From: Candidatus Aenigmatarchaeota archaeon
Lineage (GTDB): Archaea; Aenigmatarchaeota; Aenigmatarchaeia; CG10238-14; SpSt-28
DNA length: 64,000 nucleotides
Assembly (NCBI GenBank): GCA_038997165.1
Contig: JAWBAK010000001.1
Coordinates: 128,001-192,000, forward strand
Reading direction: 5' to 3'
Shown here: positions 19,785-62,536 of the stretch, piece after piece
Position numbering within the stretch: the first letter of the stretch is position 1
Layout: the number at the start of each line of letters is the position of its first letter
The notes under the pieces: generated by a model
Told to the model about the DNA's origin: nothing
Database searches by the model: none
Seen by the model: only the letters and a program-made list of their open reading frames with translations
Made by a program: the position numbers and the translations under genes

Positions 19785-20192
19785 ATGATATTAGGTTATT
19801 CCATAACATATTTGAATGCAGAAAAATTTGAAATAAAGGAAAATATAAATAAGCTTGATATAAATACAAATTTAAATATAAAAAATATACAAGAAATGAA
19901 AGTTCAGCAAGAGAAAAAACAACAAAAAGTATTAAAAGTAGATTTCGAATTTTTGATTAATTATGAACCTAAAATTGGAGAAATTAGAATAGAAGGTTAT
20001 TTAATTTATTCTGGAAAAAATATTGAAGAAATATTAGAAAAATGGCAAAAGGATAAAAAAATTGAAAACAAAGAATTTGAAATAGAAGTAAAAAATTTTA
20101 TATTAAGAAGGGGTGTTATAATCTCGACATTTTTAAGTGAATACCTTGCTATTCATCCACCAATACCAATACCTCAAATTTTACCTAAATAA
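19785..20192 (+). CDS. Conserved hypothetical protein
   Basis: 135-aa ORF with FEFLINYEP and C-terminal PPIPIP. Confidence 0.7.
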   Translation: MILGYSITYLNAEKFEIKENINKLDINTNLNIKNIQEMKVQQEKKQQKVLKVDFEFLINYEPKIGEIRIEGYLIYSGKNIEEILEKWQKDKKIENKEFEIEVKNFILRRGVIISTFLSEYLAIHPPIPIPQILPK

Positions 20193-20196
20193 TTTA

Positions 20197-20661
20197 ATGT
20201 TAGAAGAGTTATTAAAAGATTTATCATATTTGGGTTTTTTTATAGCTGGTTTAATAAGCTCTTCAACAATTTTTTTCCCTATACCATTTTATTTTTTAAT
20301 AGTAATTTCGTCAAAATTGGGATTAAATCCTTATATAGCTGCATTATTTAGTGCGGCTGGAGCTACATTAGGAGAATTAACATCATACTTTGTTGGTCAA
20401 GGTATTTCTTCTTATGTATGGAATAAATTAAAAGAAAATAAAACATACAAAAAAATGATAAAATTATTTGAAAAATATGGAAGCTGGATATTAATAGTTT
20501 TTTCTTCTTCTCCTTTACCTTTTGATTTTATTGGAATCATGTGTGGATTTTTAAAATATGATTTAAAAAAATTTTTAATAATAACATTTATAGGTAAGTT
20601 ATTTAAAATGTTAATAATAGCTTATTTTGGAGAAATTGCATTACATTATATAGGATGGTAA
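20197..20661 (+). CDS. DedA/VTT (SNARE-associated) membrane protein
   Basis: GATLGELTSYFVG, PLPFDFIGIMCG, GKLFK; start moved to MLEELL at 20197. Confidence 0.88.
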   Translation: MLEELLKDLSYLGFFIAGLISSSTIFFPIPFYFLIVISSKLGLNPYIAALFSAAGATLGELTSYFVGQGISSYVWNKLKENKTYKKMIKLFEKYGSWILIVFSSSPLPFDFIGIMCGFLKYDLKKFLIITFIGKLFKMLIIAYFGEIALHYIGW

Positions 20662-21005
20662 AAGAAATAAAGCAAGTAATAGTTATTAGAACTGATTTAG
20701 AAATGGGAAAAGGAAAAATGATATCTCAAGCATGTCATGCAAGTTTAGAAGCTTATAAATTAGCTCCGCCATATTTTAAAAATAAATGGAAATTTTTTGG
20801 ATATAAAAAAGTGGTTTTAAAAGTTTCTAGTTTAGAAGAATTATTAAAAATATATGAAGAAGCAAAAAAAGAAAAAATACCTTGTGTATTAATAAAAGAT
20901 GCTGGAAAAACTCAATTAGAAAGTGGAACTATTACTTGCGTTGCACTTGGTCCATACTATTCAGAAAAAATTGATAAAATTACAAAAAATTTAAAATTAT
21001 TATGA
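20655..21005 (+). CDS. pth2: Peptidyl-tRNA hydrolase Pth2
   Basis: KQVIVIRTDLEMGKGK..SQACHA, DAGKTQ, GP...IDKIT. Confidence 0.96.
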   Translation: MVKEIKQVIVIRTDLEMGKGKMISQACHASLEAYKLAPPYFKNKWKFFGYKKVVLKVSSLEELLKIYEEAKKEKIPCVLIKDAGKTQLESGTITCVALGPYYSEKIDKITKNLKLL

Positions 21006-21118
21006 AAAGAAAAAAGAAAAGAATAGAAAAAGAAATCGAAGAATTTGCATTAAAAGAATTTTATAAATTTATTAAGAAGATAAGAAAAAATGAAAAAAAT
21101 TTAAAGTATATTGGCTAG
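21002..21118 (+). CDS. Putative 38-aa microprotein resembling the Cdc48 C-terminal tail
   Basis: [42 protein letters not shown] overlap with the pth2 stop; fills the gap exactly up to the cdc48 stop. Confidence 0.6.
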
Positions 21119-23403
21119 CCGATATATCTTTCCTTTCTCTTCTCTGTTTCCATTACTTTTCTTTTTAATCTTTCTTCGAACTTTTTATAAAATTCTATCA
21201 TTTCCTTAGAAATAGATGGTTTTACAATTTCTAATGCCTTTTCAAAATGAATTGCTTTGACTAACATTTTTTCTGGCTCTATCTTTTTTTCTATAGCTTC
21301 TCTTAAAGCTAAAATAGCAGCTTCTTTACATATTGCTTCTAAATCAGCTCCACTATAATTTTCTGTTTTTTCTGCAATTTTTTCTAAATCAACATCTTTA
21401 TCTAATGGCATGTTTCTTGTATGAATTTTAAGAATTTCTAATCTGCCTTTTGCATCTGGTGGGGGAACATAAATTAATCTATCAAATCTTCCTGGCCTTA
21501 ATAATGCTGGATCTAATATATCTGGCCTATTTGTAGCTGCAATAACTACTACATTTTTTAAATCTTTTATTCCACTCATTTCCGTTAATAATTGTGCAAC
21601 TACATTTTCTGTAACCCTCGTACCAACTTCTAATCCTCTCATAGGAGCAATAGCATCTATTTCGTCTATAAAAATAATGCTTGGAGCAACTTCTCTTGCT
21701 TTTCTAAATATCTCTCTTATTGCTCTTTCGCTTTCGCCAACCCACTTACTAAATATTTCTGGTCCTTTAATAGCAATAAAGTTTGCTCCGCTTTCGTTTG
21801 CAACTGCCTTAGCTAATAATGTTTTTCCTGTTCCTGGTGGACCATATAATAATACTCCTTTTGGAGGTTCTATACCTAATCTTTCAAAATGTTTTGGATA
21901 TTTTAATGGCCATTCAACTATTTCCCTTAATTTTTGTTTTACTTCTTCTAATCCACCAATATCTTCCCATTTAACTTTCGGAACTTCTACAAAAACTTCT
22001 CTCATTGCGCTTGGTTGAACAACTCTTAATGCATATTCAAAATCTTCCTTTTTAACGACCAATTTTTCTAGAACTTCTCTTGGAATTTCTCCTTCTTTAT
22101 AATTTTGAATTTCTGGTAAAACTCTTCTTAATGCATGCATAGCAGCTTCTTTGCATAAAGCAGCCAAATCTGCACCTACATAACCATGAGTAATTTCTGC
22201 AATTTTTTCTAAATCAACATCTTTATCTAATGGCATGTTTCTTGTATGAATTTTAAGAATTTCTAATCTACCTTTTGCATCTGGTGGAGGTACTTCTATT
22301 TCTCTATCAAATCTTCCAGGTCTTCTTAATGCTGGATCTAATGCATTTGGTCTATTAGTTGCTCCAATAACAATAACTTTTCCTCTACTTTTTAATCCAT
22401 CCATTAAAGCTAATAATTGAGCTACTATTCTCTTTTCAACTTCACCAACAACTTCTTCTCTTTTAGGAGCAACAGCATCTATTTCATCTATAAAAATAAT
22501 GCTTGGGGCATTTTTTTCTGCTTCTTCAAAAATATCTCTTAATCTTTTTTCGCTTTCTCCAAACCATTTACTCATTATTTCAGGACCATTAATAGAAATA
22601 AAATATGCTCCGCTTTCGTTTGCAACTGCCTTAGCTAATAATGTTTTTCCTGTTCCTGGTGGACCATATAATAATACTCCTTTTGGAGGTTCTATACCTA
22701 ATCTTTCAAAAATTTCTGGATGTCTTAGAGGTAATTCAACTATTTCTCTTAATTTTTGTTTTACTTCTTCTAAATCTCCAATATCTTCCCAAGTAATTCT
22801 TGGAATTCCTTTTTCTTCTATTTCTATAAATTTCGGTTTTTCTTTCAAAACTTCTATTACAGTTTCATCATCAATAACTACAATTCCAGAAGGTTCAGTA
22901 TTTACTACGTAAAAAGTTATTTGTGGAAATGGATTAAAGAAAAAGAAATCTTCTATATCTTCTCCAAAAATTGTAGATAAAAATTCGTCTCTTCTTCTAT
23001 GCACTGGAGAAGGAACTATTAAATCTCCCTTAATTACAGGCCTTTTTAAAAGGCTTTGCTTTAAATAAGAAATACTAGCTGTAAATATTTTTTCTTCAGC
23101 AGGAGCTAATATAACTTTTTTTGCAATTTTATATTCTGCTTTTCTAACTTTTACGTTTTCTCCAACAGAAACTCTAGCATTTCTTCTTGTAATTCCATCC
23201 ATTCTTATTATATTTAAACCTATATCTGCGGGATAAGCTCTTAAAGCAATTGCAGCTGTTTTTCTTTTTCCTTCTATTTCTACTATTTCCCCTTCTCTAA
23301 CTCCTATTTTTAATAAATTGTTTGAATCAATTCTAACAATTCCTTTATAGGATTCTTCTTTTGCAGTTAATTCTCCAACTCTTAATATAAGCTCTTCTGG
23401 CAT
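21115..23403 (-). CDS. cdc48: CDC48/VCP-family AAA+ ATPase
   Basis: N-domain plus two AAA modules ([31 protein letters not shown]); ends RYIG. Confidence 0.97.
21369..22711 (-). repeat. Intragenic direct repeats between cdc48 D1 and D2
   Basis: 21784-21889 is identical to 22606-22711 (106 bp); 21369-21462 matches 22194-22287 at 93/94. Confidence 0.9.
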
Positions 23404-23455: not shown

Positions 23456-24970
23456 TTAAACCTCAATATTTACACTTCTAATTCCAACTAACATATTTGG
23501 ACAAGCATCTATACAATAAATTTCTATTTTCTTAATTATTCCTTTTGGTAAATCTGTTAAATAAATTTCTTTTGATTCTCCAGAATTAAAATTTTTATCG
23601 AGAGTAATATTTCTAGTAATTATTTTTTCATCTTCATAGATTAATTTTATTAAATATCTTTTACCTAAATCGATACCTAAATTTATCATAGTTAGTTTTA
23701 TTATTGGTGAAGTTTCTTCGGTTTGTAGGGAAATTGTTGGTTCTGGATATGAATATTTTCTAACCAACGCTCTTCCAGGATAATTTAATGTTGAATAACC
23801 ATAGTTATTGTATAAATCTAAAATTTCTTCTTGAGTTAAAGCTCTGTTGTAAATTCTAACTTCATCTATTATGCCTTTAAACCAATAAAAAGTTGGAGAT
23901 GTGGGGTAAGAAGCACCAATAGTTATTCCTCTATCGTTCGTATAAATTGGTTGAGGAGTTATTGAAGCTACTTTTTTAGAATACCATTTAAATAAACATG
24001 ATAGGTTCCTGTTGAGCTGTCATAATCAACTACTATATGATTCCAAGCATCGTAGCTAATAGGAACTGAAGCTTCTATAAGAAACCAACTTGTTCCATTA
24101 CCTAAATACCATCTTATCGTTCCTTGAGAAATAGCAAGAAAGTATGTAAATGTTCGCCCAGTTATAATAACTTCAAAATTCCCAGTATTAATGCATTTAA
24201 CCCATGCTGAGATTGCTATCTTATCTGTTAATCGTAAAGTTGGTGAATCTGGAATTCCTACATAATCATCCACTCCATCAAAACTTAAAGCTTTATTAAA
24301 CGGAGAATCTACAAAAGTAGCTCCATAAATTGTTCCATTGTTATTATTTCCACTATAATCATAAACTATATTTCCACTACCTTCATCAAAAGGTAAATAT
24401 AGAACTAATCCATCAATTTCTCTAATAAATACATTTTTAACATTAGATAAAGAATTAGCATTTGGGTTTCCATAATACAAATAAATTATTTTATTTGAAT
24501 TACTAGGAATATTTGGTATTTTTACCCAAATTTTTGTATTTTCTGTATTGCAAGTATTTGGTTCTATCCAATAATTTAATAAAGTTATTCCATCACTATC
24601 TGTAAATCTAATATCTCCACAATCACTTCTCATTTTTCCTTGAGAAATTAAACTTGCAGTATCTAATGTTACTAAAATTTGATAATCAGTTAAATTATTT
24701 CCTGAATTTTCTTTAATTTTTATTGGAATTCTATATTTAAAATCTTTATAAGCATAGCTATCAATTCTTGCTTTTGAACACTCAACAATAGATTTTATTG
24801 TTGTTTCTTCTGTTTCAGAAGTTAATTTTGAAATATATCCACTAAAATATAAATAAAGAATAGCTCCAATTCCAATAGTTATAACAAGAATTATAATTGT
24901 TGCAATATATGCAGAAATTAATTTTTTAAAACTCGAGTTTTTATATATATATATTCACGTTTAGTTTCAT
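23456..24970 (-). pseudogene. Pilin-like protein with an inserted DUF2341-LamG module, interrupted at (AT)6 and at A_AAA_AAG
   Basis: The frame upstream of ORF 24633 reads KKLISAYIATIIILVITIGIGAILY (pilin-like). LamG continues in the -1 frame after 23971 (WFKGIIDEVRIYNRALTQEEI) into ORF 23767-23456. Confidence 0.8.
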
Positions 24971-58164: not shown

Positions 58165-59301
58165 ATGCTTTGGGTTTTTAAATATAGGCCAAAAAGTTTG
58201 AATGAATTTGTAAATCAAAAAGAAGCAATACAAAAATTTATACAATGGTATAAAAATTGGAAAAATATTAAAAAAGCTGCTTTATTATTTGGTCCGCCTG
58301 GAACTGGAAAGAGTTGTTTTGTTGAAGCCTTTGCTAGAGATAATAATTTAGAACTAATACAATTAAATGCTAGCGACAAAAGAGATTATAACTCTATTAG
58401 AAATATTATTGGAAATGCGGCAAAAACTTTAAGTATTTTTAAAAAAGGAAAAATATTTTTTATAGATGAAGTTGATGGAATTTCTGCTAGAGAAGATGTT
58501 GGCGCAGTAAAAGAAATTGTTAGAATTATTCAAGAGTCAAAATTTCCAATAGTTTTAGCAGCTAACGATCCTTTTGATCCAAAATTAAAAGAATTAAGAG
58601 AAAATTGTGAATTAATAGAATTTAAAAGATTAAGTATTTTTGATATTGAAAAAAAACTTATTGAAATATTAGAAAAAGAGGGAATAAAGTATGATAAAAT
58701 TATTGTAAGAGAAATTGCAAGTAGAAATAATGGAGATTTAAGAGGAGCTATAAATGATTTAGAAATTGTTGCTAGAAATAAAAAAGAAATAAAAAGAGAA
58801 GATCTAGAAATATTAGGATTTAGAGATCGAGAACAACAAATATTCGAAGCATTAAAAATTCTTTTTAAAACGAAAAGCGCTATGGCTGCAAAGATGAGCA
58901 TTGTTAATTTAGATATGGAACCAGATGAAATTTTTTATTGGATCGAAGAAAACATTGCAAACGAATATGAAAAAATAGAAGAAATTGCAAACGCATATGA
59001 TTGCCTAAGTAAAGCTGATTTATTTAGAAAAAGAATATTATCTAGACAAAATTGGAGATATTTAGTTTATATGAATGATTTAATGACAATTGGAGTTGCA
59101 TTATCTAAAAAAGAAATGTATAGAAAATTTACAAAATATAGACCACCAAGTATTTTGAAACTACTAGCACAAACAAAACAAATAAGAGAACAGGAAAAAA
59201 TAAAATTGAAAGAATTTGCTGAAAAGTTACACTGCTCAACAAAAAAGATTAAAACAGAATTTATGCCATATTTATCAAAATTTTTTGAAGGAAAAAAATA
59301 A
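58165..59301 (+). CDS. rfcL: Replication factor C large subunit
   Basis: WVFKYRP, GPPGTGKS, LNASDKR, DEVDG, GDLRGAINDL, WIEEN. Confidence 0.95.
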   Translation: MLWVFKYRPKSLNEFVNQKEAIQKFIQWYKNWKNIKKAALLFGPPGTGKSCFVEAFARDNNLELIQLNASDKRDYNSIRNIIGNAAKTLSIFKKGKIFFIDEVDGISAREDVGAVKEIVRIIQESKFPIVLAANDPFDPKLKELRENCELIEFKRLSIFDIEKKLIEILEKEGIKYDKIIVREIASRNNGDLRGAINDLEIVARNKKEIKREDLEILGFRDREQQIFEALKILFKTKSAMAAKMSIVNLDMEPDEIFYWIEENIANEYEKIEEIANAYDCLSKADLFRKRILSRQNWRYLVYMNDLMTIGVALSKKEMYRKFTKYRPPSILKLLAQTKQIREQEKIKLKEFAEKLHCSTKKIKTEFMPYLSKFFEGKK

Positions 59302-59305
59302 TTTT

Positions 59306-62300
59306 ATGAAAAGAAAAGAAAAATTTTTAACTTTTTTATTTTTTACAATTTTTATATATAGTTTATCATTATCTTTTTCTCAAACTTGGCTTTCTAATTG
59401 GCAATACAGAATTCCAATAACAATAACAGAAAGAAGTGGAAATACTTTAACTGATTATCAAGTTTTAGTATCAATAAATACTCAAAATTTAATTTCTCAA
59501 AATAAAATGAGAAATGATTGTGGAGATATAAGATTTACTGATAGTGATGGAATTACTTTATTAAATTATTGGATTGAAGATGGATGTAATACAAATAATA
59601 CAAGAATTTGGGTTAAAGTACCAAATATTCCTGCTAATTCAAATAAAATAATTTATTTGTATTATGGAAATCCTAATGCTCAAAGCTTAAGTAATATTTC
59701 CTTAGTATTTATTTTTAGAGAAAGGGAAATATTTCCAAGTATTTCTAATACAACATGGGGATCTGGAACATCTAATCCAGAAGATACTTTTAATACTTAC
59801 TATCATGATGCAAGAAATGAAATATTAATTAGATCTTCTGATTTTGGAGATTTGGCTCCAATAAATATAACAATGTTAAGAATTTACGTAGTTCAACGAC
59901 CAGGAAGAGATTTAGATAATTATAGAGTAAGATATCAATTAACTAATAGAACTCAACTTACAAATACTTTTACAACTTCAGGATGGATCTTAGTTTTTGG
60001 ACCAGTTAATTTAGGAAGACCATCAGCAGGAACTGTTGTTAGTTTAAATTTAAATCCACAAATAATTTGGACGAATCATTCTTTAAATTTATTGTTAGAT
60101 TTATCCAGAGATACATCTTCATATGTTTCTGGAGGAGGAATGTATAGAAAACTTGTAAATATTCCTAATACAATGTGCACTTTTTGGGGTGATTCTAATA
60201 GGCAATGGCCTTTTGATGGTAGCTGTACTTTAAGAAATTATGTACCAAGCATAATATTTGTTGGATGGTTTAAAAAATACACTTCTCTAGAACCAACAAT
60301 TTCTTTAGGAAATGAAGAATATCAAAGAAATCTAAATCCAATATGGATAATATACACATCTAATACTTCTTATGCTATAATTAATCGGCCTATACTATTT
60401 TCAAGTCTATGGAATGCATCCCAAATTCAATCTAATTTATTTTTGTCACACTATATTTTCTCATATAAATTAGGAAATTCGCAATGGATCAACGAAACCT
60501 ATAAATTTGGCATTGCTTCTCAAACTTGGCTTTCTAATTGGCAATACAGAATTCCAATAACAATAACAGAAAGAAGTGGAAATACTTTAACTGATTATCA
60601 AGTTTTAGTATCAATAAATACTCAAAATTTAATTTCTCAAAATAAAATGAGAAATGATTGTGGAGATATAAGATTTACTGATAGTGATGGAATTACTTTA
60701 TTAAATTATTGGATTGAAGATGGATGTAATACAAATAATACAAGAATTTGGGTTAAAGTACCAAATATTCCTGCTAATTCAAATAAAATAATTTATTTGT
60801 ATTATGGAAATCCAAGTGCTACTTCTATGAGTAATGGAGATAATACTTTTATATTTTTTGATGATTTTAGAATAGCAACATCAATTAATACAAATAAATG
60901 GATTGTTTCAAGATATTCGGGCGATACTAATAATGAATGTGTTATCTCTAATAATGTTTTATGGCTAACAAAAAAAAGTTTGTGGAAAGGTTGTAATATA
61001 TTAGCAAGAAATTTAAATATAAAGTATAATTCTCAATATACAATTCATGTAAAATTTAAAATTGATTATGTATGTGCAGCTTCAAATGATGGAGATGGGC
61101 TTGCTATAGTTATAGATGGAAAAAGTAATTCAGCATCTTATGGATGTAATAAAGGATTCTCTACAACTTCTCAAGGAATTGTTATAGAAATTTTTGATGA
61201 TAGACCAAATGGAGATAATCTTAATGGTATTGGAATAGATGATGAAACAGCAAATTGTAATTTAGAAGGAAGAGTTACTTCTTCTATTCCACAAAAATCA
61301 AGTGATTTAAATGATGGATTATTTGAAATAAAATTAACAGGAACTCAAATTAATGTTACATATTATGATTTAAATCTAGCAAATGGATATTTAATAAGAT
61401 CTTTAATAACTAATACTTGGAATCCAAATGGAAATGGATATTTTATGATTGGTGCGGGTGCTGGATGCTCAGATTGTAATGGAGATGGAAGTTGTAATGA
61501 TCCTGATAGTGAACACGGTATTGAATATATTTTTATAAGAAAATATTCTTCGATAGAACCAATAATTTCTTTAGGAAATGAAGAAACAAATTTACCTTTT
61601 ACGGCATGGGCAAATGTTACAAAAAGTTTTTCTCAAGTTGGAAATTTATGTTGGAGATTCTATGCAAATAATACTATTGGTCTATGGAACTCAACACCAA
61701 TAAACTGCAGCATTAACATAATTTCTCCCGAATTTTCACTAGAAGTTAAATTAATTCGACCAAATGAGAATTCTATAAGTAATCTAATTGTTGGAGAATC
61801 TTTAAATATAAGAGCTCATGTAAAAATGAGATCTCAATACAATTTTTGTATAGATGTAAATGCATATTTAAGATATAATGTTTCATCAAACATGCCAGAT
61901 TCTTTAGTTCCAACATCTTCTAATTCAATAATATCAAATGCTAATCCTATATCTTTTAATTTATGTACAAATCGAGAAATTCCAATAGATTTTACAATAT
62001 ATGCGACCAAACCGAGTTTTAAAGTTTTAGATATAAACTTTTGTGTTTTAAATATCTGTAACGATACTTCAAACTTTTATATTAATATTTCTTTAGTTGC
62101 AACAAGAGATTTTAATTTAAAGAAAGGTTGGAACCTAATTTCAATACCGTATAAATTTATATACTTTGATTTAAATAATGATAACTGTAATATAAAAGAA
62201 AAAATATTTCATCATTATAATGCATCTTCAAATTCTTGGAAATACTTTACCTATGATAAATTAGTTCCAGGTATTTCATATTGGGTTTATAGTGAAAAGG

Positions 62301-62536
62301 ATTGTACCTCTAAAATTGCAGTGAGTGGAACAGTTAACTTAAGCGATTTGCCAAAAGCTATAAGAGGAAGAAAAAATTTTATTGGTTCCTTAACTTCTTT
62401 AACAAACTTAAATCAAGCTGCACAATATATTGGATGTAATAATCCTATACTTAGATATTGGGATACTTCTACTAACTCTTTTAGAGAATCTACAATTTTA
62501 GAACCTTGGAAAGGTTATATACTCGAATGTAGTTAA
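59306..62536 (+). CDS. Large secreted/surface protein with two DUF2341-like modules carrying different inserts
   Basis: Signal peptide from ATG 59306; two copies of WLSNWQYRIPITI...IYLYYGNP; second insert has a GDGLAIV lectin-like motif; C-terminal LKKGWNLISIP. Confidence 0.85.
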   Translation: MKRKEKFLTFLFFTIFIYSLSLSFSQTWLSNWQYRIPITITERSGNTLTDYQVLVSINTQNLISQNKMRNDCGDIRFTDSDGITLLNYWIEDGCNTNNTRIWVKVPNIPANSNKIIYLYYGNPNAQSLSNISLVFIFREREIFPSISNTTWGSGTSNPEDTFNTYYHDARNEILIRSSDFGDLAPINITMLRIYVVQRPGRDLDNYRVRYQLTNRTQLTNTFTTSGWILVFGPVNLGRPSAGTVVSLNLNPQIIWTNHSLNLLLDLSRDTSSYVSGGGMYRKLVNIPNTMCTFWGDSNRQWPFDGSCTLRNYVPSIIFVGWFKKYTSLEPTISLGNEEYQRNLNPIWIIYTSNTSYAIINRPILFSSLWNASQIQSNLFLSHYIFSYKLGNSQWINETYKFGIASQTWLSNWQYRIPITITERSGNTLTDYQVLVSINTQNLISQNKMRNDCGDIRFTDSDGITLLNYWIEDGCNTNNTRIWVKVPNIPANSNKIIYLYYGNPSATSMSNGDNTFIFFDDFRIATSINTNKWIVSRYSGDTNNECVISNNVLWLTKKSLWKGCNILARNLNIKYNSQYTIHVKFKIDYVCAASNDGDGLAIVIDGKSNSASYGCNKGFSTTSQGIVIEIFDDRPNGDNLNGIGIDDETANCNLEGRVTSSIPQKSSDLNDGLFEIKLTGTQINVTYYDLNLANGYLIRSLITNTWNPNGNGYFMIGAGAGCSDCNGDGSCNDPDSEHGIEYIFIRKYSSIEPIISLGNEETNLPFTAWANVTKSFSQVGNLCWRFYANNTIGLWNSTPINCSINIISPEFSLEVKLIRPNENSISNLIVGESLNIRAHVKMRSQYNFCIDVNAYLRYNVSSNMPDSLVPTSSNSIISNANPISFNLCTNREIPIDFTIYATKPSFKVLDINFCVLNICNDTSNFYINISLVATRDFNLKKGWNLISIPYKFIYFDLNNDNCNIKEKIFHHYNASSNSWKYFTYDKLVPGISYWVYSEKDCTSKIAVSGTVNLSDLPKAIRGRKNFIGSLTSLTNLNQAAQYIGCNNPILRYWDTSTNSFRESTILEPWKGYILECS
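59377..60813 (+). repeat. Perfect 297-bp direct repeat (59377-59673 = 60517-60813)
   Basis: Base-by-base identical, offset 1140. Confidence 0.95.

Follow-up and report, generated by a model that had tools for sequence, protein, structure and literature searches.

In archaea, the ATPases PAN and Cdc48 dock on the alpha ring of the 20S proteasome through C-terminal HbYX tails, in which a hydrophobic or small residue stands three positions from the C-terminus (P3) and Tyr or Phe at P2, and whose canonical role is to bind the alpha pocket (with a salt bridge to Lys66) and open the gate (PMC3493965). Seven-residue peptides from the C-termini of PAN and Cdc48 activate the archaeal 20S in vitro, the Cdc48 of T. 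acidophilum ends in Leu-Tyr-Leu, and archaea devoid of PAN are reported to rely on Cdc48 and to keep its canonical HbYX motif (PMC3493965). The PAC2 homologue PbaB of P. furiosus uses a terminal Gly-Tyr-Leu, carried on a flexible helix-plus-tail 'tentacle', to bind and activate the mature 20S, in a manner dependent on the Lys of the alpha pocket (PMC3605417). With the human 20S, Tyr at P3 is a requirement and P5 is also needed, as in the tail of hRpt5 (ANLQYYA) and in an optimised peptide (NLSYYT) (PMC8907193). Pbp11, an 11-kDa OB-fold protein of Thermococcales, binds PAN and tRNA (PMC9540759). Here, we compare these systems with a microprotein gene found in a stretch of 64,000 nucleotides (hereafter the window; G000:C1:128001-192000, where G000 is the genome of origin). 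The gene is an open reading frame (ORF) of 38 codons located between pth2 and cdc48, and its product ends, like Cdc48, in Y-I-G. The source is a tiny hot-spring archaeon of the DPANN phylum Candidatus Aenigmatarchaeota, with a genome of 652 kb (94.5% complete, ~24% G+C). In the following, 'the order' is the order of Aenigmatarchaeota to which it belongs.

A conserved gene under purifying selection

The ORF was first noticed in an initial annotation made from the window alone, and it is present as described there: its ATG overlaps the TGA of pth2 (ATGA). The same annotation regarded this type of coupling as common in the region, and 8 of the 68 non-overlapping ORFs of the window (≥80 aa) indeed have a stop overlapping an ATG that opens at least 30 codons. 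The size of the ORF proves nothing by itself, because the genome contains 1474 ORFs of at least 30 aa that start with Met (vs. only 588 of at least 100 aa), and it is conservation that decides. Using tblastn and six-frame readings around cdc48, we identified the ORF at the same place, flanked by pth2 and cdc48, in five more genomes of the genus. A genome of another genus (G008) encodes a 59-aa version, with a gene for a DedA/VTT membrane protein lying between the microprotein gene and cdc48.

A profile made from six sequences (A1) matched short open frames in 50 of the 118 genomes, and in 24 of the 46 genera, of the order. The profile and alignment made from 26 sequences (A2) matched 58 of the 371 genomes of the phylum, all but one of them within the order (57/118). 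The latter are distributed among families f1 (8/18), f2 (44/70), f3 (3/3), and f6 (1/1), plus the genome of the window itself, with no match in f5 (0/23). Outside the order, 1 of 253 genomes of the phylum had a weak match (E 2.2e-4), and one of the matches in the order (in G097) carries an internal TAG. The genome G018, which is 58% complete and assigned to genus g2, has a contig (C109) with pth2, the microprotein gene, and a cdc48 91% identical to that of the window, as well as a second cdc48 at 70% on contig C4. It is probably a mixed bin, and the sole match in g2 is therefore not countable for this genus.

The frame is kept through length changes of whole codons (33-62 aa), the indels being multiples of three. 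The ratio of nonsynonymous to synonymous substitution rates (dN/dS, by NG86 on a core of 26 codons) ranges from 0.036 to 0.58 in the 12 of 28 pairs that allowed its computation. The remaining 16 pairs had a saturated dS and a dN of 0.03-0.42. The core of the window and that of G004 differ at the nucleotide level by 13 changes and at the residue level by 3, all conservative. The initial annotation had proposed to search for the ORF in relatives and to compute dN/dS, and it had envisaged that only the palindrome formed by the two convergent stops (see below) might be kept. What we found is the opposite: the ORF is conserved under purifying selection, and the palindrome is not. We regard it as nearly certain that the ORF is a real, selected gene whose product shares the tail of Cdc48 and PAC2.

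We searched larger databases for further members of the family. In a collection of 5.8 billion proteins, 90 clusters matched the profile, all of them with 33-68 aa and zero with a Pfam domain; they are named only 'hypothetical protein', and the only taxa given are Aenigmarchaeota/Aenigmatarchaeota or 'archaeon'. HMMER, run in full against 1.84 billion representatives, produced 27 matches of 33-59 aa, of which 26 align to the last residue. The microproteins of this family, ~33-60 aa long, occur in a single order of Aenigmatarchaeota, and some have already been deposited, without a functional name (e.g., P0055 and P0052, both 'hypothetical protein [Candidatus Aenigmatarchaeota archaeon]'). Among open-access papers and preprints, we found no earlier description of such a microprotein; among the matches listed, none linked HbYX to microproteins or small ORFs, and none treated the proteasome of this phylum. 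The Pfam scan of the 26 family members gave no meaningful family (best E 0.0026, in single members only): PF09754 (PAC2) was absent from 26/26 members at E values up to 1, and no ribosomal or RNA-binding family was matched. We also looked for fused or longer forms in a set of 7995 candidates with 105-2000 aa and saw none at E up to 0.01, which is weak evidence. A relaxed search for divergent copies (E up to 5) in four genomes of f5 and one of g2 returned only internal matches in ORFs of 384 and 462 aa.

We also considered whether the ORF could be an extension or a frameshift product of pth2. This was rejected, given that the start lies apart from the stop of pth2 in G004 and G002; in other genera, the gene stands alone behind an AT-rich (possibly TATA-like) upstream sequence, which also counters this reading. 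The RNA data consisted of one run with a small share of words and of three raw metatranscriptomes from a related study. They did not cover positions 20335-21096, and the few contigs and reads matching conserved parts of cdc48 at 90-99% are probably those of relatives; these data provide no test of expression.

A C-terminal tail shared with Cdc48 and PAC2

The consensus of alignment A2 is M-(basic, variable)-KKIExFAxKQLEKYIxIHKKNEKxLRYIG. The tail reads Y-I-[G/A/S/R] in 26/26 members: Tyr and Ile are invariant, and the last residue is Gly, rarely Ala, Ser, or Arg. The Glu at P8, the Lys at P7, and the Leu at P5 are at least 90% conserved. All invariant residues are within the last 8 positions, and the N-terminus, which is strongly rich in Lys and Arg, is the least conserved part. 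The stop codon directly follows G38, so that the tail is terminal and its carboxylate free. With the family alignment, AlphaFold2 predicts a helix at residues 2-35 with a mean predicted local distance difference test (pLDDT) of 83.8, and of 57 for the last block. Family members start with a basic N-terminus that varies among them, continue with a single amphipathic helix, and end in the free tail E-K-x-L-[R/K]-Y-I-G. The EFYK stretch that the initial annotation had seen in both the microprotein and Cdc48 does exist, but it is confined to the genus of the window, and the other members read QLEKY or QMQRY at this place.

The orthologues of genus g29 (L052, L058, L059, and L063) have a His-rich N-terminal extension (e.g., MHHHDHFHMHRK) that replaces the Lys-rich one. 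A role in metal binding is possible.

The tail singles out a small set of proteins. Five of the 1474 ORFs of G000 have a Y[IVLM][GAS] terminus. ORFs of 188 and 1908 aa contain two of the five in antisense orientation, which leaves the microprotein, Cdc48, and a proteasome chaperone of the PAC2 family. Among 30 loci of the order, Cdc48 ends in YIG (21) or YVG (8), the last locus being truncated at the end of a contig. The PAC2 tails of families f1 and f2 (30 loci) are YIG (24), YLG (5), or YIQ (1), and 29 of them read L[ST]Y-, the exception being LEYIQ. The PAC2 tails of f5, where the microprotein was not detected, are (E/D)L[RK]YIG in 16/16 loci. Similar tails are found in five genomes from five other families of the class, where PAC2 ends in ENLRYIG, DDLKYIG, EQLRYIG, EDLKYIG, and DDVRYIG, and Cdc48 in RYIG, RYIG, HYIG, TYVG, and IYTG, respectively. 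Overall, Tyr is at P3 in Cdc48 (29/30 loci of the order) and in PAC2 (51/51 loci), P2 is Ile, Val, Leu, or Thr across the two proteins, and P5 of PAC2 is Leu, once Val. There is also a switch at P4 of PAC2, from L[ST]YIG in f1 and f2 to L[RK]YIG in f5 and the other families sampled from the class, which parallels the presence of the microprotein.

Profile-profile comparisons with hhalign matched the microprotein to the PAC2 tails with Prob 75-83% and P 2.4e-5 to 8.8e-6, over only 7-9 columns. The match to the Cdc48 tails spans 33 columns with 30% identity (Prob 54%, P 1.3e-4), the similarity beyond YIG being weak. By sequence comparison, the tail of the microprotein (L-[RK]-Y-I-G) is matched better by that of PAC2 than by that of Cdc48, and in its form EKxL[RK]YIG it is the tail that PAC2 has in the lineages sampled beyond the families that bear the microprotein. 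Of the likeness to the Cdc48 tail pointed out in the initial annotation, the terminal Y-I/V-G holds across the order. What these proteins have in common is, as far as their sequences tell, a short linear motif and not a homology of the whole peptide. Homology beyond the tail, be it to PAC2 or to the C-terminal helix of the Cdc48 D2 domain, is not claimed here, since a search of the ORFs of G000 with the hidden Markov model (HMM) of the family found only the microprotein itself.

A basic single-helix protein of this size could instead bind nucleic acids or associate with the ribosome, and its terminal YIG would then serve its own fold or a partner of its own, matching the tails of Cdc48 and PAC2 by convergence or chance. 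The Lys/Arg-rich N-terminus fits this idea, as do the translational coupling to peptidyl-tRNA hydrolase in the genus of the window, the position behind deoxyhypusine synthase in other genera, and the existence in Thermococcales of Pbp11, a small tRNA-binding protein associated with the proteasome (PMC9540759). Yet, one would then have to explain why the N-terminus is the least conserved part and why the invariant residues concentrate in the last 8 positions. Only three non-embedded ORFs of G000 carry the tail, the other two being partners of the proteasome, and the match to PAC2 extends to P5-P7, as (E/D)-L-[RK]-Y-I-G. The lack of matches to ribosomal or RNA-binding families among the members scanned is a further point against it. 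We therefore hold this alternative to be improbable.

Proteasome components and the proposed function of the microprotein

The genome of the window encodes one 20S alpha subunit, one 20S beta subunit, and a single Cdc48. The alpha and beta genes are located at G000:C1:448958-449635 and G000:C1:437601-438215, respectively. We did not find PAN in it: the model TIGR01242 matched only the two AAA domains of Cdc48, with 334 and 329 bits (the cut-off being 500). Cdc48 is thus the sole candidate unfoldase. The alpha subunit matches solved archaeal alpha subunits (E ~1e-54), and the Lys of its EKIF motif aligns with their EKIF/EKIY. This Lys of the alpha pocket is invariant in 30 relatives.

In relatives, the matches to Cdc48 are often in 2-4 collinear pieces (e.g., G003:C1:31773-35549, G028:C10, G024:C10, and G053:C1:532678-537582) that sit in single stop-free open frames of 1100-1885 aa. 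This looks like the presence of one or more inteins in the AAA domains of these proteins. The 762-aa protein encoded in the window has none.

We propose that the microprotein is a free docking tail for the 20S alpha ring, which would modulate the opening of the gate or compete with Cdc48 and PAC2. From the sequence evidence given above, we judge the chances that this is its function to be even, and think it equally probable that the microprotein binds the 20S or that it does not. In this proposal, Y-Phi-X with Tyr at P3 would be the version of the HbYX docking motif used by this lineage. The tail of the microprotein would insert into the pockets between alpha subunits, where it might prop the gate open, as free 7-mers of PAN and Cdc48 do in vitro. 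Alternatively, it might compete with Cdc48 and PAC2 by filling these pockets. The helix might serve, together with the basic N-terminus, to increase valency, capture substrates, or tether nucleic acids. The initial annotation had suggested a decoy of the Cdc48 tail, or a 20S regulator, expressed together with peptidyl-tRNA hydrolase. From this suggestion, we retain a conserved and selected gene with a conserved tail, and putative docking on the 20S, and we abandon the module with pth2.

The genomic location of the gene is also relevant in this respect. In 23 of the 24 genomes where both genes could be located, the microprotein gene and cdc48 share a contig, at 0-7.1 kb from the 3' end of cdc48; in G053 they are on different contigs. 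Among the 23 linked pairs, 22 are convergent and one (in G003) is in tandem, directly behind cdc48. This persistent closeness is suggestive only.

Several observations weigh against a docking function. The tail is not a canonical HbYX, its penultimate residue being Ile rather than Tyr or Phe, and for the same reason (an invariant Ile instead of Phe or Tyr at P2) it does not obey the human Y-Phi rule. That the Cdc48 and PAC2 of this lineage would themselves dock by this tail is argued by analogy with homologues in other archaea, and a monovalent tail may bind weakly. The HMM search of the ORFs of G000 mentioned above returned the microprotein at E 5e-16 and the next ORF at E 0.72, with Cdc48 outside the top 25; because no significant similarity extends beyond the tail, the shared element is only ~5-7 residues long. 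The family was not detected in f5 (0/23) and in genera g2 and g4, whose Cdc48 and PAC2 carry the same tails, and the microprotein is therefore dispensable. Finally, since related genomes do not count as independent cases, inherited synteny could account for the linkage to cdc48. A predicted complex of the microprotein (alignment A2) with three alpha subunits (alignment A4), scored at 0.00 without controls, speaks neither for nor against docking.

Cofactors grip the C-terminal tail of eukaryotic p97, and by analogy the Y-I-G tail could be read by some other receptor common to its carriers, or the microprotein could bind Cdc48 or PAC2 directly. The departure of the tail from the canonical HbYX and the persistent linkage to cdc48 would both make sense under this scenario. 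However, the two larger carriers of the tail belong to exactly those families known for C-terminal docking in the alpha pocket, the Lys of the pocket is conserved, and the combination of Tyr at P3 with Leu at P5 has a precedent in 20S binding, and no candidate receptor turned up among the neighbouring genes. These elements make another receptor unlikely.

The docking proposal can be extended into a broader scenario, in which the microprotein would be a natural stand-alone 'gate key' that possibly arose from the helix-plus-tail of PAC2 and that tunes the gate, or arbitrates between Cdc48 and PAC2, in cells without PAN, within a class-wide code based on Tyr at P3 instead of HbYX. This remains tentative, and we find it somewhat less probable than not. 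The microprotein keeps L-[R/K]-Y-I-G, as PAC2 does in f5 and in the five genomes from other families of the class, whereas PAC2 in f1 and f2 reads L-[S/T]-Y-I-G.

Free HbYX peptides are used in the laboratory to open the 20S gate, and a docking tail that is encoded in the genome as a free peptide and kept by purifying selection would be their natural counterpart. If our proposal is true, these archaea would offer a minimal system (one alpha, one beta, one Cdc48, one PAC2, and one microprotein, without PAN) for studying the way in which competing tails share seven alpha pockets. The Y-I/V-G tails found class-wide on Cdc48 and PAC2 disagree with the claim that archaea lacking PAN keep a Cdc48 with a canonical HbYX (PMC3493965). 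They suggest that Tyr-at-P3 docking, which has been described for the human 20S, also takes place in archaea. Screens for HbYX proteins such as ProEnd use the canonical Hb-Y-X pattern, and the tails of this lineage fall outside of it.

Gene neighbourhood and the palindromic stop

The gene pth2 is found upstream of the microprotein gene only in genera g1 and g3. Other members have a deoxyhypusine synthase or a rhomboid gene upstream, or an adjoining divergent gene with a CBS domain. The microprotein gene there faces winged helix-turn-helix regulators or a protein of 226-294 aa that mostly ends in a Lys-rich tail. Contrary to what had been suggested from the window, the association with pth2 is thus not a property of the family.

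The sequence of the window confirms that Cdc48 ends in YIG and that the two TAG stops share CTAG within a near-palindrome. The arms of the latter (21107-21118 and 21115-21126, 12 nt) are 92% complementary. The corresponding RNA hairpins have -8.7 and -11.6 kcal/mol (z ~-2.2, with 5-6 of 200 shuffles folding as well) and are followed by U-rich tracts on both strands. Of the five distinct loci of the genus, two (G000 and G001) have overlapping stops, and three have stops separated by 4-5 nt. Selection for a hairpin was considered and rejected: when the arms of these five loci are compared at the free third positions of their Ile and Gly codons, they match in only 4/10 cases, and nothing beyond coding constraint therefore preserves the pairing. 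Two convergent genes that both end in TAT-ATH-GGN-stop automatically form an inverted repeat. The palindrome occurs only where the microprotein gene abuts a convergent gene (in genus g1 and in G008), and most of the other 30 loci are without it; it is no functional feature of the family. In our reading, it is a by-product of two tails in a compacted genome, with at most a secondary role as terminator.

In G008 (contig C88, L013/L042), the microprotein ends in SYIR and its gene is convergent with the DedA/VTT gene, whose product ends in KIHR. Their TAG stops overlap in the near-palindrome ACATTCGCTAGCGATGT, which arises even though the two tails are unrelated.

One could also dispense with the gene altogether and see in this region an A-rich spacer (oligo-T on the opposite strand) followed by a palindrome that serves as bidirectional terminator for pth2 and cdc48. 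This would account for a palindrome that folds modestly better than its shuffles and for the U-rich tracts on both strands. It would not account for a protein that is conserved at loci devoid of both the cdc48 neighbour and the palindrome, nor for dN/dS values far below 1, indels in multiples of three, and the poor agreement of the third codon positions. As sole explanation, the terminator-spacer is already refuted, and we grant the absence of a gene hardly any probability.

Other features of the window

The positions of the elements discussed above are given in Table 1. The genes upstream of the microprotein gene form a string of overlapping genes (ORF, DedA/VTT, pth2, microprotein), headed by an ORF of 135 aa without Pfam match (window 19785-20192, + strand). 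The genus keeps a counterpart of this ORF with a similar C-terminus (HPPIPxPQIxPK).

Table 1. Positions of the microprotein gene, its neighbours, and the gene for the PAC2 protein. Coordinates refer to the window unless a contig is given.
Feature	Position	Strand	Description
Microprotein gene	21002..21118	+	38 codons + TAG; basic N-terminus, one long helix (predicted), flexible L-K-Y-I-G tail
Tail codons L34-K35-Y36-I37-G38 of the microprotein	21101..21115	+	Y and I invariant, L at least 90% conserved (26 family members)
pth2 (peptidyl-tRNA hydrolase, 116 aa)	20655..21005	+	PF01981, E 2.4e-40; stop overlaps the start of the microprotein gene
cdc48 (762 aa)	21115..23403	-	CDC48_N, CDC48_2, two AAA domains; convergent; ends in KERYIG
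Cdc48 tail codons Y-I-G (TAT ATC GGC)	21118..21126	-	Read from the sequence
Near-palindrome TATATTGGCTAGCCGATATA, 20 nt	21107..21126	.	From two convergent Y-I-G-stop codon sets; weak hairpin possible
PAC2 protein, 255 aa	G000:C2:17212-17979 (outside the window)		PF09754, E 8.6e-37; ends in EEKKLSYLG

Two other observations concern more distant parts of the window. The ORFs at 23968-24633 (- strand) and 59216-62536 (+ strand) share a long repeat (MRNDCGDIRFTDSDGITLLNYWIE, IWVK[IV]PNIP[AS]NSNKIIYLYYGNPNA), which is present twice within the 1106-aa ORF of this pair. The genes at window 58165-59301 (+ strand) and at G000:C3:151-1374 (- strand) encode paralogous AAA proteins of ~380-407 aa. By eye, they look like large subunits of replication factor C, which is unconfirmed by Pfam. 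Contig C3 is short, and the copy there could be a duplicate or a contamination of the bin.

Comparison with known systems

Pbp11 resembles the microprotein in its small size, its restriction to one lineage, and a proposed role in connecting the proteasome with other machinery (PMC9540759). The two are unrelated in sequence, and a docking tail is not among the features that the abstract reports for Pbp11 (PMC9540759).

With the tails that bind the human 20S, the microprotein shares the Tyr at P3 and the Leu at P5, so that N-L-K-Y-I-G aligns position by position with N-L-Q-Y-Y-A, except at P2 (PMC8907193). The PAC2 of this lineage has in addition a small or polar residue at P4. The likeness is by motif only: P2 is an aliphatic Ile, Val, or Leu instead of Phe or Tyr, and the alpha ring of archaea is homoheptameric.

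The HbYX tails of PAN and Cdc48 are a further point of comparison. Like them, the microprotein has a short tail with a free carboxylate and a Tyr, invariant here and essential in those tails, preceded by a charged and flexible segment, and the Cdc48 of this lineage itself ends in Y-I-G. Unlike them, its tail is a separate product of 38 aa and not a part of an ATPase, with Tyr at P3 and Ile at P2.

The comparison with PbaB and PbaA shows both differences and similarities. The microprotein is without a PAC2 domain, its likeness to PAC2 in profile comparisons is limited to the 7-9 terminal columns, and PbaB ends in Gly-Tyr-Leu. On the other hand, the predicted helix and flexible tail of the microprotein resemble the C-terminal segment of PbaB (PMC3605417), and the PAC2 proteins of the class end either in KL[ST]YIG or in (E/D)L[RK]YIG, the latter being identical to the tail of the microprotein.

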